Source: a bacterium (GTDB lineage Bacteria; Armatimonadota; Zipacnadia; Zipacnadales; Zipacnadaceae). From it: a stretch of DNA of 64,000 nt. Positions 26,970 to 31,754 of this stretch are shown here, piece by piece. Made by a program: the position numbers and the translations under genes. The notes beneath the pieces are model-generated. The model was given only the letters and a program-made list of their open reading frames with translations, had not been told where the DNA came from and ran no database searches. Positions within the stretch are counted from its first letter, which is position 1. The number at the start of each line of letters is the position of its first letter. The DNA lies in assembly GCA_030602615.1 (NCBI GenBank), contig JAUVZM010000005.1:5094-69093 (forward strand), in the 5' to 3' direction.

Positions 26970-28037
26970 ATGAGAACGACAATGCTAATCCTGTCTCTTC
27001 TGGCCCTGGCAGTAATACCTGCGCTCACAGACGACGGCGCAATCGGGGTAGTTGGTGGCGCAGTGCAGATGCTCGACGAACACAGCGATGTGCGGATGGT
27101 CTCTGCAAAGATCAGTGCTGATGTCCATATAGGGAGCACCAGGGTTCGCTGCGAGTACCTGCTCAAGAATGAAGGCAAGGGGCAGATGGTAACCTTGGGC
27201 TTCCCAGACATGCCGGGATGGGAGGGAGCTGACGTCCGAATAACGCATGTGCATCTCCACGACTTCCGCTCGTGGGTTGATGGCAAGCGATTGTCTGTCA
27301 AGCTTCACACTATGTCCCGGGAAAAAGGCTCCGGCTTCGACCGGTGGTATGTTAGGCGGATATGGTTTGGTCCTGGTCGAACGCGGCAGGTGGTCAATAC
27401 CTACATCCAAGGTCATGGTATGATGTCGGACGGGTCGCGGTGGTTTCCCTATACCATATGGCCGGCGGGATCATGGAGGGGCCCCATTGGCGAACTTGAC
27501 ATCACTGTGCGGTGGTGCGAACCGCACTTGTGGAACCATGAACGCACGCGGACATGGTCATGGACCGACCTCGAGCCCACTCGGCAACACGTCGCGGATA
27601 TATTTGTGGGTTTTTACCCGGCGTGGCGGCAGGCGGTTGTCAACGGGGAAAAGAACTGGGGCCCAGAAGCTGCTAACTGGTTCCTGGTCTACTCAGACCT
27701 GACCATGGCTCCAGTGCGGCATCTAGCCAGTTTGCTCGGCTTGGAGTGTGTTTGGGCCGATGGGGTAGTCGCCCTGTCGGACGGTGCGGGGAAGATGTTC
27801 GTTTGCCAGGTCGATAGCGAGAAAGCAATTGTCAACAGCAAGGTGATTACCATGCGAAGGGCACCTATGCTGCGGACCGCGCCCGGCTACACCAGGGGAC
27901 AACGCCATATGTATGCTCCCCTTCGCCCGATTTGTGACGTGTTCGGCTGGCGCTGCAGCCTGTACTACGACCAGTACGCCGTGGTGCTGGAGCGCGCGGA
28001 GCCAAAGCCCGCTCAGGCAGTGGAGGAGAGCCAATAG
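26970..28037 (+). CDS. secreted protein with a C-terminal copper-amine-oxidase-N-terminal-like (stalk) domain
   Basis: A signal peptide is present. The W/H-rich N-terminal domain is of unknown family. The C-terminal ~70 aa (KVITMRRAPMLRTAPGYTRGQRHMYAPLRPICDVFGWRCSLYYDQYAVVLER) resembles Cu_amine_oxidN1 stalk domains. Confidence 0.5.
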   Translation: MRTTMLILSLLALAVIPALTDDGAIGVVGGAVQMLDEHSDVRMVSAKISADVHIGSTRVRCEYLLKNEGKGQMVTLGFPDMPGWEGADVRITHVHLHDFRSWVDGKRLSVKLHTMSREKGSGFDRWYVRRIWFGPGRTRQVVNTYIQGHGMMSDGSRWFPYTIWPAGSWRGPIGELDITVRWCEPHLWNHERTRTWSWTDLEPTRQHVADIFVGFYPAWRQAVVNGEKNWGPEAANWFLVYSDLTMAPVRHLASLLGLECVWADGVVALSDGAGKMFVCQVDSEKAIVNSKVITMRRAPMLRTAPGYTRGQRHMYAPLRPICDVFGWRCSLYYDQYAVVLERAEPKPAQAVEESQ

Positions 28038-28102: not shown

Positions 28103-28159
28103 TTGACAAACGAGGCAAATAGTGTTAGACTCTAACGGCATATTGGAATCTGTCAATAT
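28103..28159 (+). promoter_or_regulatory. promoter (TTGACA-17-TAGACT) with an inverted repeat that is a candidate ArsR/SmtB operator
   Basis: A -35 element TTGACA at 28103-28108, a 17-nt spacer and a -10 element TAGACT are present. ATATTG-N8-CAATAT (28140-28159) lies between the promoter and the arsR ATG at 28168. Confidence 0.4.
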
Positions 28160-28167
28160 TTACAGCT

Positions 28168-28494
28168 ATGCAAACGCTTGCCACCAGGTGCGTTCATAAA
28201 CTCAGAGTAGAAGTTCTCAAGGCGCTCGCCTCCCACACTAGACTTCACATAATTGCTCTGTTGCGCGACGGCGAGATGGCTGTTTGCGATATTGCTGACG
28301 CACTGGGGAACAATCAGTCTACCATATCGTGTCACTTGAATACACTTCGGGCCAGCGGACTGGTGACAACGCGCAAAGAGGGCAATCGGGTTCACTACCG
28401 GCTGGCCCACGAGGCAGTTGACGAGCTGCTCGAGCTGGTTGATGAGATACTGAAGGCCCAGTGCCTAAGTAACAGTGAAACACTGGACCTGTAG
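28168..28494 (+). CDS. ArsR/SmtB family metal-responsive transcriptional repressor
   Basis: A winged-helix HTH LKALASHTRLHIIALL...CVCDIA-type fold is present. Metal-ligand Cys residues lie at the alpha-3 position (MAVCDIAD). The length is 108 aa. Confidence 0.8.
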   Translation: MQTLATRCVHKLRVEVLKALASHTRLHIIALLRDGEMAVCDIADALGNNQSTISCHLNTLRASGLVTTRKEGNRVHYRLAHEAVDELLELVDEILKAQCLSNSETLDL

Positions 28495-28548
28495 GACAGA
28501 GAATGAATAGCTTCCTACAGCGTTTTCCCCAAGAAGGAGGTGACCAAT

Positions 28549-28671
28549 ATGTGTGGATGCTGTGAGCCAAAGAAGGAAAAAGAGTGCTGTGAGCCGAAGC
28601 AGGAAGAGTGCTGCCCGGAAGAAAAGAAAGAAGAGAAGTGCGAAGAGGAAAAGAAAAGCTGTTGCGAATAG
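28549..28671 (+). CDS. unannotated 40-aa Cys-rich microprotein, a candidate metallothionein-like metal binder (MCGCCEPKKEKECCEPKQEECCPEEKKEEKCEEEKKSCCE)
   Basis: It is not in the ORF track, which reports a different frame here. A perfect SD AGGAGGTG lies 7 nt before the ATG. Ten Cys residues fall in CC/CxC clusters within an E/K matrix. It lies immediately downstream of arsR and is followed by a textbook intrinsic terminator. Confidence 0.5.
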   Translation: MCGCCEPKKEKECCEPKQEECCPEEKKEEKCEEEKKSCCE

Positions 28672-28680
28672 CAATAGCAC

Positions 28681-28721
28681 AGACTGGGGCCTGATGCAAC
28701 ACAGGCCCCAGTCTTTTTTTG
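28681..28721 (+). terminator. rho-independent terminator (13-bp stem agactggggcctg / caggccccagtct, then T7)
   Basis: A perfect GC-rich hairpin followed by TTTTTTT lies 10 nt after the microprotein stop. The convergent NIL-ferredoxin gene ends 23 nt beyond it. Confidence 0.6.
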
Positions 28722-28743
28722 CGTACATTGATGCCCGACTACC

Positions 28744-29151
28744 TTAGAACTCCACCTTCATCGCCCGCGGCGGGCAGGCGGGCACACACAGCTCACAGGC
28801 GACGCAGCGATCCGAGTCGAAGTGTACCTCCTGCGTCGCCACTTCCCGGTACAGCGCCTCCGTGGGGCAGATCGTCAGGCACGCCCCACAGTGGTTGCAT
28901 CGGTCTTCGTCGCGCACCACATCGCGTTCCAGCGGCTCGACGGCCACACCCTGGTCGCGCGTCCAGGCCAGCCCCTGACGCAGGTTCTCTTCGCTGCCCT
29001 CCAGTCCCACCACCAGCAGACCCTCCGATTCGGGAGTAATATTGGCGCGCAGGATGTTCAGCTCCAGGTCGTAGTTCTTCACCAGGTGCGAGACGACTGG
29101 TTCATCTATCAGATGACGCGGGTAGCGTAAGACTACGCGGCGCGTTGCCAT
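28744..29151 (-). CDS. NIL-domain 4Fe-4S ferredoxin (partner of the DUF39 homocysteine-synthesis protein)
   Basis: An N-terminal NIL domain is followed by two CxxCxxCxxxCP motifs (CNHCGACLTICP and CVACELCVPACP). The gene is adjacent to DUF39, as in the methanogen-type pathway. Confidence 0.75.
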   Translation of the reverse strand: MATRRVVLRYPRHLIDEPVVSHLVKNYDLELNILRANITPESEGLLVVGLEGSEENLRQGLAWTRDQGVAVEPLERDVVRDEDRCNHCGACLTICPTEALYREVATQEVHFDSDRCVACELCVPACPPRAMKVEF

Positions 29152-30366
29152 CTAACTCACCTCCGGCTGGACAGGACGTTCGCGCAGCGGTTTGAAGCTG
29201 ACTCCCGAGTCGGCAGAGGGTATCTGCTGGACTGGCTCGCTGAGCAGAAACTCCCCACGCTGGATCCAGTCCTTGAGAATCCCGGCGATCTGTCGTGCCT
29301 TGGGGTAGCTGGATAGTGAACCAGTCGGCACCTCTCGGCCATTGATCTGTATGCTGCCGCTGCGCAACCGTTTGTAGTCAACATAACCCAGCGGGCCGCC
29401 CTCGTTGTAGGGGTAGCCCCGACTGTAGTCCACAATCGGTGCAACGATATCTTCGTCTTTCACCGCGGTGTACAGCGCCATCTCTTCGTCGAGAATGGGA
29501 ATGGCCGTGCCAATACCAACCGTCAGCGAGACACCATATCCGTACATACTGACTCCCACCATCCACTGCGGGTCCATCTGCTTCATATCGCCGACTACCG
29601 CCAGGGTGCCAGCGCCCCCCTTGGGCACACCATTGCCGGCGCGGGCTGCGGTGGGATTGTGCTGGGTCCCCGGCCAGAAGACGTAGCCCTCGGCCCCGCC
29701 CAGGAATATGCGCGAACCGATCCCAATGGTTCGGTAGTAGGGATCGTTCAGCAGCGGGCTGAGCTGGCCGGCCGAGCAGTAGTTGGCATTGCCCAGGTCG
29801 CGCTTGAGCACGCCCATATAGGTGTAGATGTCACGCTCCTCGTTTAGATTCACCGCAACGCTGTAATTCTGGTAGCAGTTGCGAGGATTGAGCAGCGTGC
29901 ATTCGTTGAGGTCCTGGATATTGATCCAGGTATCCAGCTCCCTGCGCGGGTAGCAGTCTGTGCCATAGCCGCTCGCCCGTAACCGGACATCCTTGCCAGC
30001 CACCAACTCCTCGATGACATGTCCGCCGCCGTAGCGGAATTCGCCGGGATGCTGCGCGTTGAGCGGATCGCCTTCGACGACCGCGGTGGCACCGATATAC
30101 AGGTCCACCGCAGCCAGGCCCCCGTAGGCCGGCACGTCATTGAGCCACCCCTCGGAGGCACGGATCCGCGGTGTGCTGTGCCCGAAGTTAATCAGAGCAC
30201 CCGAAGAGCACATCGGCGCGAAGGTCCCCGTGGTCACAACGTCCACCTGCGCGGCAGCCCCGGCTGGCCCCTTCTCGTCAACTACATCTATCATCTCCTC
30301 GGCGGTGACAACCACTACTTCGCCGCCGCGGATTCTATCGTTGATTTCCTGGTAGGTCTTGGCCAC
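29152..30366 (-). CDS. DUF39 (COG1900) homocysteine biosynthesis protein, sulfide-dependent
   Basis: The 404-aa protein shows conservation typical of the MA1821 family. A GTG start is preceded by GGAGGTGA. It lies adjacent to a NIL-ferredoxin. Confidence 0.75.
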   Translation of the reverse strand: MAKTYQEINDRIRGGEVVVVTAEEMIDVVDEKGPAGAAAQVDVVTTGTFAPMCSSGALINFGHSTPRIRASEGWLNDVPAYGGLAAVDLYIGATAVVEGDPLNAQHPGEFRYGGGHVIEELVAGKDVRLRASGYGTDCYPRRELDTWINIQDLNECTLLNPRNCYQNYSVAVNLNEERDIYTYMGVLKRDLGNANYCSAGQLSPLLNDPYYRTIGIGSRIFLGGAEGYVFWPGTQHNPTAARAGNGVPKGGAGTLAVVGDMKQMDPQWMVGVSMYGYGVSLTVGIGTAIPILDEEMALYTAVKDEDIVAPIVDYSRGYPYNEGGPLGYVDYKRLRSGSIQINGREVPTGSLSSYPKARQIAGILKDWIQRGEFLLSEPVQQIPSADSGVSFKPLRERPVQPEVS

Positions 30367-30563: not shown

Positions 30564-30896
30564 TTATCTGAAGCAGGCCACCTTGCCGCCCTCCGGCATC
30601 CAATGGTGACGAACACACTCACAGCATAGCCCCAGTCGGGGGCAATCCTGCGCTTCACAGAGGCACGCTTCAGCGTTGCGCGACTGATTGTCACAGGAGC
30701 TTACCAGTCCCTGCAGGTTAAGTGTGTCTTCAGGGCGCCCGGCCCCGCCCATGCAGGCGGTCTCAGGCCACTGGGTGCTGTTTCGATGATACGCGGCGCA
30801 CTCACAACATATCCCCCGACGCGGACAGGATTCCTCCAGACACGGACACATCTGGATGTTGATCTCGTAGTTGGGACATTGTTGGGCCAATGCCAT
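30564..30896 (-). CDS. hypothetical Cys-rich protein with two tandem C-x-C-x4-C-P-R-x-G-x-C-C-E-C-x3-[YH]-H modules
   Basis: The repeats CPCLEESCPRRGICCECAAYH and CLCEAQDCPRLGLCCECVRHH are internal duplicates. The chosen start is ATG at 30896, with AAGGGAAGTGAG upstream. It lies between thi4 and DUF39. Confidence 0.5.
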   Translation of the reverse strand: MALAQQCPNYEINIQMCPCLEESCPRRGICCECAAYHRNSTQWPETACMGGAGRPEDTLNLQGLVSSCDNQSRNAEACLCEAQDCPRLGLCCECVRHHWMPEGGKVACFR

Positions 30897-30956
30897 ATTC
30901 TCACTTCCCTTTTTCTGATGGCGGCGAGACGACTTGCCGCTTTGCAACTCGCAGTG

Positions 30957-31754
30957 TCATTCGTCAGCAAGTCGGTCGGCAGCCAGTTGCGCGGCCTTCT
31001 GGCCGGACAGGAACATACCGCCGAATATCGCTCCCATGCGCGGGGCGCCGGCCGCAGCATTGGCGGCCATCCCCGCCACTATTACGCCGGGGTAGACTTC
31101 CTTAGTCAGCTCGACGATATGGCCTTCAGCTTCAGTGGCATTCATCGAACTCTCGCCGGCTATCTGACCGGTAGGAGTATCGAACTCAGCACCAGCAATC
31201 TTGCGCTCGATGGTTCGCAGCACGTCCGCGTCATGACCAGTGGCATCAATGACCAGTCGTGCGCTGACCGCCAGCGGGTCTACGTGCATCTGGGCGCGCT
31301 GCACCGCATCCCAGTTCAGTACCACCCCACAGACCCGAGCGTGCTCATCAATCACTACGTCCTCAACCAGCATACCCACCCAGATATGGGCGCCAGCGTC
31401 TACCGCGGCAGCAGTGCATTTGGATACACATTCGACTGAATCGGCCACGTGATAACCCTCGCCTGCCTGCTGGACACTGACCCCGACTTCCTTGACGAGC
31501 TGCACGGCCTCATCCTGAATAACTATGCGCGGAAAGAGCATGCCTCCGCCCCACATGCCCCCGCCCACATGCAGGTTACGCTCGAATACTGCCACTTGAT
31601 AACCAGCCTCGGCCAGCAGCCGCGCCGCGGTTATGCCGGAGGGCCCGGCGCCGACCACGGCTACATCCAGGCGCGTGTCGGCTACAAAATCTTCAGCAAA
31701 GCTTCTGACGATAAAACGAGTAACTCGGGTTTCATCAATGTGACGCAGTGACAT
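30957..31754 (-). CDS. thi4: thiazole synthase Thi4 family (His-type, sulfide-dependent; ADP-thiazole synthase)
   Basis: The FAD/NAD fold motif VAVVGAGPSGITAARLLAEAG and the Thi4 motif GGGMWGGGMLF are present. The active-site region DATGHDADV has His where yeast THI4 has its suicide Cys. A TPP riboswitch precedes the gene. Confidence 0.8.
   Translation of the reverse strand: MSLRHIDETRVTRFIVRSFAEDFVADTRLDVAVVGAGPSGITAARLLAEAGYQVAVFERNLHVGGGMWGGGMLFPRIVIQDEAVQLVKEVGVSVQQAGEGYHVADSVECVSKCTAAAVDAGAHIWVGMLVEDVVIDEHARVCGVVLNWDAVQRAQMHVDPLAVSARLVIDATGHDADVLRTIERKIAGAEFDTPTGQIAGESSMNATEAEGHIVELTKEVYPGVIVAGMAANAAAGAPRMGAIFGGMFLSGQKAAQLAADRLADE

Follow-up and report, generated by a model that had tools for sequence, protein, structure and literature searches.

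Is a 40-codon, cysteine-rich open reading frame (ORF), unannotated and lying directly behind the gene of an ArsR/SmtB-family regulator, a real gene, and if so, what is the pair for? The question is raised by a 64,000-nucleotide (nt) stretch of contig JAUVZM010000005.1, from an Armatimonadota bacterium of the Candidatus Zipacnadia, this whole stretch being referred to below as the window. An earlier reading of the window, made from its letters alone (the sequence-only reading), had described a metallothionein-like operon composed of a promoter, a palindrome, arsR, a Shine-Dalgarno (SD) sequence, the 40-codon ORF and an intrinsic terminator, and all of these features lie where they had been placed (Table 1). 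From the comparison of related loci that is reported here, the existence of the small gene and its linkage to arsR are near certain, and in the operon we see a promising candidate for a minimal bacterial thionein of a new type, together with its dedicated sensor. Metallothioneins are rare in bacteria, where they are known from SmtA/BmtA, MymT and a handful of other families, and gene callers routinely miss ORFs as small as this one or give them a wrong start.

The microprotein gene and its linkage to arsR

Related loci were gathered from contigs encoding relatives of the peptide, from ArsR orthologues, and from alignment of ArsR against genome and metagenome collections, the scans of raw contigs in these collections being anchored on ArsR and not on the peptide. 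The sequence-only reading had tied its case to conservation of the small ORF in related genomes, and this conservation is found: the 47 loci (designated by L numbers below) yield 27 distinct peptide coding sequences, 26 of which are intact. In each of the 27 distinct loci, the motif [AG]GGAGGTG is followed, after exactly 6 nt, by ATG or GTG. Peptide lengths range from 27 to 41 codons, and the differences always amount to whole codons, as explained by repeat units of 24 and 27 nt; in the window itself, a 27-nt tandem duplication at positions 28558-28613 encodes CCEPK(K/Q)E(K)E. Among the 186 TGY (Cys) triplets found between SD and terminator, 179 share a single frame, while the other seven either come after the end of the ORF or share nucleotides with in-frame Cys codons. 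Synonymous variation is seen throughout, since the invariant Pro codon is alternatively CCA (10 sequences), CCC (11), CCT (3) or CCG (2), and the invariant Cys codons alternate between TGT and TGC from one sequence to the next. The stop codon, whether TAG (17), TGA (6) or TAA (3), always comes one residue past the last Cys.

Within the window, this ORF is the only one out of 525 ORFs of 25-120 amino acids (aa) whose Cys content reaches at least 20%, and no ORF of that length and Cys content was obtained in 20 shuffles of the window. A chance ORF was accordingly rejected, on the basis of these shuffles and of the whole-codon length shifts, the fixed SD spacing, the single frame of the Cys codons and the synonymous variation.

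Other ORFs overlapping the same region were considered in turn. The out-of-frame 64-aa ORF mentioned in the sequence-only reading is indeed present (28553-28747, +2 frame); it has no SD, its GTG start is lost in L013 and it runs through the terminator, and it is a by-product of the purine-rich sequence. Two antisense ORFs of 87 and 127 aa at the locus were likewise rejected, for lack of an SD and of conserved starts and because they read through the terminator. As for the GTG at position 28540, which the automated ORF list takes as a start, it belongs to the SD and is not the true start.

The pairing of an unannotated gene with an ArsR sensor, as claimed in the sequence-only reading, is borne out, in that the arsR-peptide-terminator module is found at every related locus whose sequence can be read downstream of the arsR orthologue. 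The ArsR proteins encoded with this module are from 94% down to 59-61% identical to that of the window. ArsR proteins that are at most 51% identical to the window ArsR have neither the invariant Cys triad described below nor the peptide gene, and where their neighbours could be identified (L049), these were ArsP and thioredoxin-type genes. The flanks of the module are PurN on one side and NIL-Fer4 and HcyBio on the other in the clade of the window, sulfatases and a glycoside hydrolase in L017 and L020, and SepF, ProC and Rce1 in L015. Because the flanks are wholly different between clades while arsR, peptide gene and terminator stay constant, the linkage is specific; the downstream gene, which is convergent in the window, L013 and L015, is also unrelated between clades.

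A strong hairpin (-24 to -42 kcal/mol) follows shortly past the stop codon in every complete homologous locus, with stem sequences that are clade-specific. In the window, the terminator has a folding z-score of -4.15 and its stem begins 9 nt after the stop codon; the closeness of ORF and terminator pointed out earlier is correct, the distance of 10 nt given for it is not. No Rfam family matches the operon region above threshold, and an atoC match lying over the terminator was discarded for its score of 22.6 bits, compared with a gathering score of 50.

Some of the loci come from metagenome-assembled genomes (MAGs) of Armatimonadota, labelled either Candidatus Zipacnadia or "uncultured Armatimonadia", others from metagenomes of sediments, including those of cold seeps, and an arsR orthologue is present in 10 species-representative MAGs of GTDB. 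The genome survey that defined the Zipacnadia mentions ArsR genes in 53 of 77 MAGs, in generic terms only (PMC10290634). The operon is, in sum, a self-contained two-gene unit that is specific to an uncultured sediment lineage of the Armatimonadota.

Table 1. Positions of the operon features and of the downstream genes in the window
Feature	Position	Strand	Details
Sigma-70-type promoter of the arsR-peptide operon	28103..28131	+	-35 TTGACA 28103-28108, 17-nt spacer, -10 TAGACT 28126-28131
Operator-like palindrome ATATTG-N8-CAATAT	28140..28159		ATATTG 28140-28145, CAATAT 28154-28159; no strand
arsR, ArsR/SmtB-family winged-helix repressor, 108 aa	28168..28494	+	Pfam HTH_5, NCBIfam NF033788
SD of the microprotein gene, AGGAGGTG	28535..28542	+	6 nt before ATG 28549
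Microprotein gene, 40 codons and TAG	28549..28671	+	TAG 28669-28671; conserved in 27 distinct coding sequences
Intrinsic terminator of the two-gene operon	28681..28721	+	stem 28681-28714, 13 pairs (9 G-C), 8-nt loop, T7
NIL-domain/2x[4Fe-4S] ferredoxin gene	28744-29151	-	convergent
HcyBio (COG1900-type homocysteine biosynthesis) gene	29152-30366	-	convergent
Thi4 gene	30957-31754		beyond HcyBio

Operator-like palindrome, regulator and peptide family

The promoter of the operon agrees with the consensus at 10 of 12 positions and carries a TG extension. A promoter scan gave 2 promoter-like sites in 1 kb, versus 0.1 expected, and no second plus-strand promoter between arsR and the peptide gene. 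TTGACA, 17 nt and a TATAAT-like -10 element precede arsR in all 27 distinct upstream sequences compared. The inverted repeat that the sequence-only reading had pointed to in this promoter proves to be conserved as well: in the same 27 sequences, the palindrome is found directly 3' of the -10 element at a constant position (starting 9 nt past it in the window, and 7-9 nt past it across orthologous loci), and its core ATTG-N8-CAAT, at 28142-28157 in the window, is present in 41 of the 47 loci. The core sequence ATTGNAATNNNNCAAT occurs once in the window, versus 0.01 occurrences expected. Some loci have perfect 16-bp palindromes, namely ATTGGAATATTCCAAT in L013 and ATTGCAATATTGCAAT in L040, and the palindrome of L012 has one mismatch. 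Owing to this location just 3' of the -10 element, the palindrome would lie over the expected transcription start, i.e., at the position expected of a repressor operator; it is a conserved operator-like element, and repression by ArsR is predicted to take place there.

Assignment of the regulator to the ArsR family relies on matches to Pfam HTH_5 (E=1.9e-16; 60.1 bits, cut-off 22) and to NCBIfam NF033788 (96 bits, cut-off 55), and on an AlphaFold2 model (pLDDT 89) with the canonical ArsR fold and the element order H-H-H-H-E-E-H. When this model was submitted to Foldseek, the top matches were all ArsR-family proteins (TM 0.65-0.9), among them Mb0332, CadC, HlyU, SqrR and SmtB. Three cysteines are invariant in 25 ArsR orthologues: Cys8, from the N-terminal helix; Cys55, within the recognition helix, in the motif QSTISC[HN]L (QSTISCHL in the window); and Cys99, near the C-terminus. 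A fourth, Cys40 (in AVCDI), is frequent, with Gln or Arg in its place in 6 of the 25 orthologues. The classical metal sites of the ArsR family are all missing from this protein. The alpha3 CVC site of As(III)-responsive ArsR proteins (ELCVCDL-type) is absent, with the single Cys40 only, and so is the alpha5 Zn site of the SmtB/CzrA type (Asp/His/His/Glu), as there is no His in alpha5 (residues 82-106) and the only His nearby, His81, is an Asp in many orthologues.

The layout of the Cys triad is reminiscent of CmtR, which senses Cd via two Cys of the recognition helix and a C-terminal Cys (PMC11672702). Like this Cd/Pb sensor of Mycobacterium and Streptomyces, with its alpha4C site, the ArsR protein of the window has a Cys in the recognition helix and another one at the C-terminal end (Cys55 and Cys99), and the two proteins are 40% identical over 78 residues. 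Unlike in CmtR, Thr59 and Ser63 stand in the positions aligned with Cys57 and Cys61, the recognition-helix Cys comes one turn earlier, and there is a third invariant Cys (Cys8). Since Cys55 precedes CmtR Cys57 by one helical turn and Cys99 falls in the region of CmtR Cys102, the best reading of the triad is a novel site, with a layout similar to that of CmtR, that would suit a soft metal or metalloid; by analogy, this ArsR may function as CmtR does while standing outside the CmtR family.

The window peptide, MCGCCEPKKEKECCEPKQEECCPEEKKEEKCEEEKKSCCE, has 10 Cys, 14 Glu and 9 Lys in 40 residues, with no aromatic residue and no His. Across the family, both ends are conserved, with an M-x(1-4)-CC-x-PK head and a KK-S-C-(C/S)-x tail; the alignment displays an invariant M, CC, P, K, E and C-terminal K...C, and gives the consensus M-C-K-C-C-x-P-K-K-E-E-K-C-E-E-K-K-E-E-K-C-x-K-x-E-K-K-S-C-C-x. 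The 26 intact members have 5-10 Cys each (18-25%), no His and, taken all together, one aromatic residue, a Tyr. A low mass, a high Cys content (about 15-30%) and the near-absence of aromatic residues and His are the compositional hallmarks of metallothioneins. No signal peptide and no hydrophobic segment was detected in the peptide, and its AlphaFold2 model (pLDDT 57.7) has no confident apo fold.

The sequence-only reading had also held that this peptide is distinct from SmtA and BmtA. In agreement with this, none of 24 family members matches any Pfam family, metallothioneins included, at E<=10, and the SmtA/BmtA family model, which describes a zinc-finger-like fold with His ligands, is not matched by the peptide family. 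The window peptide has no match in Pfam or NCBIfam and no sequence match in the PDB at E<=10. A word-indexed protein search returned 3 relatives when run with the peptide alone and at least 6 with the 24-member alignment, and an exhaustive search of 1.84 billion representative proteins with a hidden Markov model returned 4 matches, all of these relatives and matches belonging to the same lineage; the family may be truly lineage-restricted, or may merely be uncalled elsewhere. The relatives found in protein searches are unnamed and 31-33 aa long, except for a 55-aa call that starts too far upstream. In the literature searched, there is no description of the peptide or of the three-Cys ArsR subgroup, and no source names the peptide. 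Both the peptide family and the ArsR subgroup are undescribed and unnamed in the resources searched.

Gene calling of the microprotein is inconsistent among L016, L017, L019, L021 and L011, where identical or near-identical sequences are either called or skipped; in L011 (P0001), the gene was called with a start located 14 codons too far upstream.

Proposed mechanism and competing readings

SmtB-SmtA is the textbook precedent for an ArsR/SmtB-family repressor that controls a metallothionein. Minimal thioneins such as the copper metallothionein of Neurospora crassa (25 aa, 7 Cys) and mycobacterial MymT resemble the present peptide in size, Cys count, expected disordered apo-form and expected metal-thiolate clusters; they have CxC and CxxC motifs in Gly/Ser-rich contexts, and MymT is not regulated by an ArsR protein. 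Unlike in these two proteins, with which the peptide has no sequence similarity, its CC pairs are separated by Glu/Lys spacers that are probably helical. AzuR-NmtA is a second case of a metallothionein under the control of an ArsR/SmtB-family repressor (PMC8790569). As in these two cyanobacterial systems, the operon combines an ArsR/SmtB-family repressor, a small cytoplasmic Cys-rich protein as sole effector and an operator-like palindrome at the promoter, and negative feedback by sequestration would be expected. In contrast to SmtB-SmtA, it is a single, co-directional and presumably autoregulated operon in which the regulator comes first. Its peptide is also shorter (27-41 aa versus 56 aa for SmtA), lacks the His and aromatic residues of SmtA and consists for about 60% of Glu and Lys, in spacers that bear single Cys or CC pairs, and its regulator has neither the alpha3N nor the alpha5 site of SmtB. 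An ArsR-family sensor paired with a Cys-rich sequestering protein is a known kind of system, within which the peptide family and the ArsR subgroup would be new.

We consider it slightly better than an even bet that the operon consists of an autoregulated ArsR sensor and a thiolate-rich sink, with a logic like that of SmtB/SmtA and a peptide that is not homologous to known metallothioneins. An ArsR dimer bound to ATTG-N8-CAAT, over the transcription start, would keep the operon repressed. A thiophilic inducer, for which a soft metal or metalloid such as Cd, Zn, Cu(I), Hg or As(III) is the likeliest candidate, would then engage the Cys8/Cys55/Cys99 triad, upon which the repressor would leave the DNA. 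The resulting bicistronic mRNA would be translated into little repressor and much peptide, as predicted from the lack of an SD before the arsR ATG in the window on the one hand, and from the perfect SD and the unstructured, purine-rich coding region of the peptide gene on the other. The product would be a cytoplasmic peptide of 27-41 aa with a CC-x-PK head and a KKSC(C/S) tail and, between them, one to several Glu/Lys spacers of about eight residues, each bearing a Cys or a CC pair. Its 5-10 thiolates would bind the inducer, the free inducer would fall and ArsR would rebind, which would make the circuit one of negative feedback. From the features described above we infer three points, namely that repression occurs at the palindrome, what the inducer is like, and that the peptide binds it through its thiolates.

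As its members have their own promoter, operator, sensor and terminator, and vary naturally in the number of Cys-bearing repeats, the family is well defined. Its roughly 600-bp operon provides a compact experimental system for metal or thiol sensing by the new ArsR Cys triad and for minimal thiolate-cluster chemistry, with a possible use in biosensor or bioremediation parts, and would add a stress-response trait to Candidatus Zipacnadia.

Of the metallothionein-like operon proposed in the sequence-only reading, the anatomy and the gene pairing stand. A metallothionein-like function of the peptide is the best-supported explanation, and is a function that we infer, because the closest solved relatives of the regulator are non-metal, thiol-based proteins and the classical ArsR metal sites are absent from it. 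Several observations weigh against such a function. By sequence, the peptide is unrelated to all metallothionein families, and the most distant members of its own family have only 5-6 Cys, which is few for a cluster-forming thionein. The net charge of the peptide is about -5 in the window clade and about +6 in L017, and given this flip between clades, only the Cys pattern and spacing are conserved. One of the 27 peptide genes, that of L024, is broken by a premature TAA at codon 7 (MCKECC*), the sole such copy, and this is either a recent inactivation or an assembly error. On the side of the regulator, the scores remain below the cut-off of every named metal-sensor model, with 66 bits for PRK10141 (cut-off 97) and 45.2 bits for the NCBIfam CmtR model NF047906 (cut-off 150). 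By sequence profile, the closest solved relatives are HlyU (75.9 bits), NolR and SqrR; Mb0332 is also among the best profile matches, and SmtB (53 bits) and CadC rank behind them.

At the L024 locus (JAUWJN010000076.1), about 45 nt past the arsR stop codon, the remaining reading frame of the peptide gene and the terminator are intact.

These last profile matches lead to the main rival explanation, a thiol-redox or reactive-sulfur module, which is live and which we hold to be unlikely though by no means far-fetched. ArsR would here be of the HlyU/BigR/SqrR type, with cysteines oxidised or persulfidated by polysulfides, oxidants or electrophiles, and the peptide would be a sacrificial thiol buffer or an acceptor or carrier of sulfane sulfur, not a metal sink. 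The ranking of HlyU, Mb0332, NolR and SqrR ahead of SmtB and CadC speaks for it, as does the presence of the BigR model (NF040642) among the better NCBIfam matches, even if the score of 54.8 bits is far from the cut-off of 155. Like in HlyU, BigR and SqrR, there is a Cys near the end of alpha5; the alpha2 Cys that completes the redox pair of these proteins is missing, however, since HlyU Cys30 aligns with Ala30 in the window protein and with a consensus Asp in the orthologues. Vicinal Cys pairs such as those of the peptide readily form persulfides or disulfides, and the habitats, as judged from MAG names, are sulfidic cold-seep and hydrothermal sediments. The operon also adjoins the sulfur-assimilation genes HcyBio and NIL-Fer4, a neighbourhood that is conserved in the window clade only. 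The usual sulfide-oxidation regulon, in turn, is unlinked, with no sqr, pdo, rhodanese or TauE gene at the loci examined, and the invariant recognition-helix Cys is a feature of the metal sensor CmtR.

A related and somewhat less probable possibility, which we also regard as unlikely, is that the peptide, instead of a metal sponge, is the first case of a dedicated, ribosomally made oligo-thiol, i.e., a modular Glu/Lys helix displaying CC pairs, which, controlled by a new ArsR sensor with three cysteines, would act as a carrier or buffer of sulfane sulfur or polysulfide, or as a co-sensor of its own repressor. If true, this would be a low-molecular-weight-thiol system based on a peptide, in an uncultured phylum-level lineage of sulfidic sediments.

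More doubtful is a role of the peptide as a partner of the regulator, whether small co-sensor, metallochaperone or anti-repressor, delivering the signal to ArsR or removing it. The strict 1:1 linkage with one ArsR subfamily, with no other effector gene, would fit such a role, and so would the low sequestration capacity of the distant members with their 5-6 Cys. Against this, an SD on the peptide gene and none on arsR would lead to a large excess of peptide over repressor, and the internal Cys repeats vary freely in number, which better fits selection on capacity than a fixed interface.

That the ORF is a Cys-responsive leader or attenuator peptide, at whose Cys codons ribosomes would stall when Cys-tRNA is scarce and thereby control readthrough, is largely refuted and has very little probability left. 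In mycobacteria, Cys-responsive attenuation is known from polycysteine ORFs (bioRxiv 10.1101/834739), which are, like the present ORF, short, unannotated and rich in Cys codons. Besides its many Cys codons, the ORF has its end close to the terminator and, in the window clade, sulfur amino-acid genes nearby, as would be expected of an attenuator. The mycobacterial ORFs are leaderless and come first in operons for Cys-related genes, whereas here a strong SD precedes the ORF and a terminator follows it; as it is the last gene of the transcript and not the first, with downstream genes that are convergent or unrelated, the attenuator explanation was rated low. In addition, folding gave no antiterminator alternative pairing, conservation extends beyond the Cys codons to Pro, Lys and both termini, and the operon has a dedicated repressor of its own. 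Lastly, a RiPP (ribosomally synthesized and post-translationally modified peptide) precursor, a secreted peptide or a chance ORF in a purine-rich spacer, as the small size of the ORF and a radical-SAM/SPASM gene about 4 kb away in L015 might suggest, has a negligible probability, given the overwhelming coding signatures, the lack of leader-core architecture and of a signal peptide, and the absence of modification, protease or export genes conserved alongside at the loci examined.

Neighbouring genes and minor features

Beyond the two convergent genes that follow the operon in the window, between HcyBio and Thi4, a 127-aa Cys-rich ORF (30564-30947, minus strand) contains the internally duplicated motif C-x-C-x-E-x-x-CPR-x-G-x-CCEC-x-x-x-H and has no match in Pfam or NCBIfam. 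It is absent from L003, as the gap between HcyBio and Thi4 is only about 220 nt there. Upstream of the operon lies a gene of 355 aa (26970-28037, plus strand), the product of which begins with a signal-like sequence and weakly matches DUF4424 and the N-terminal domain of copper amine oxidase. On this left side the surroundings of the operon vary, since L013 has two paralogous genes in the same place and most other relatives lack any.

In L049 (1742-4564), the closest ArsR outside the orthologue group, which has 47% identity and a CICE motif, is encoded at the head of another operon, together with an ArsP_1 permease, Thioredoxin_3 proteins, a DGC-domain protein and two uncharacterised ORFs of 49-75 aa.

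A promoter-like match on the minus strand (TTGACA, 16 nt, TAGAGT; 28129-28156) overlaps the operator-like palindrome. The symmetry of the palindrome probably accounts for this match, which is then unlikely to be a divergent promoter, and no gene start is found near it on that strand. At the other end of arsR, a hairpin (CUGUAGGA...UCCUACAG, followed by CGUUUUCCCC; 28489-28520, plus strand) spans the stop codon, and its loop varies within the window clade. A role as attenuator was rejected for this hairpin, which is not significant relative to shuffles (z-score -0.8) and is not seen in the other clades; it might serve for partial termination or for processing, thereby setting the arsR-to-peptide ratio.

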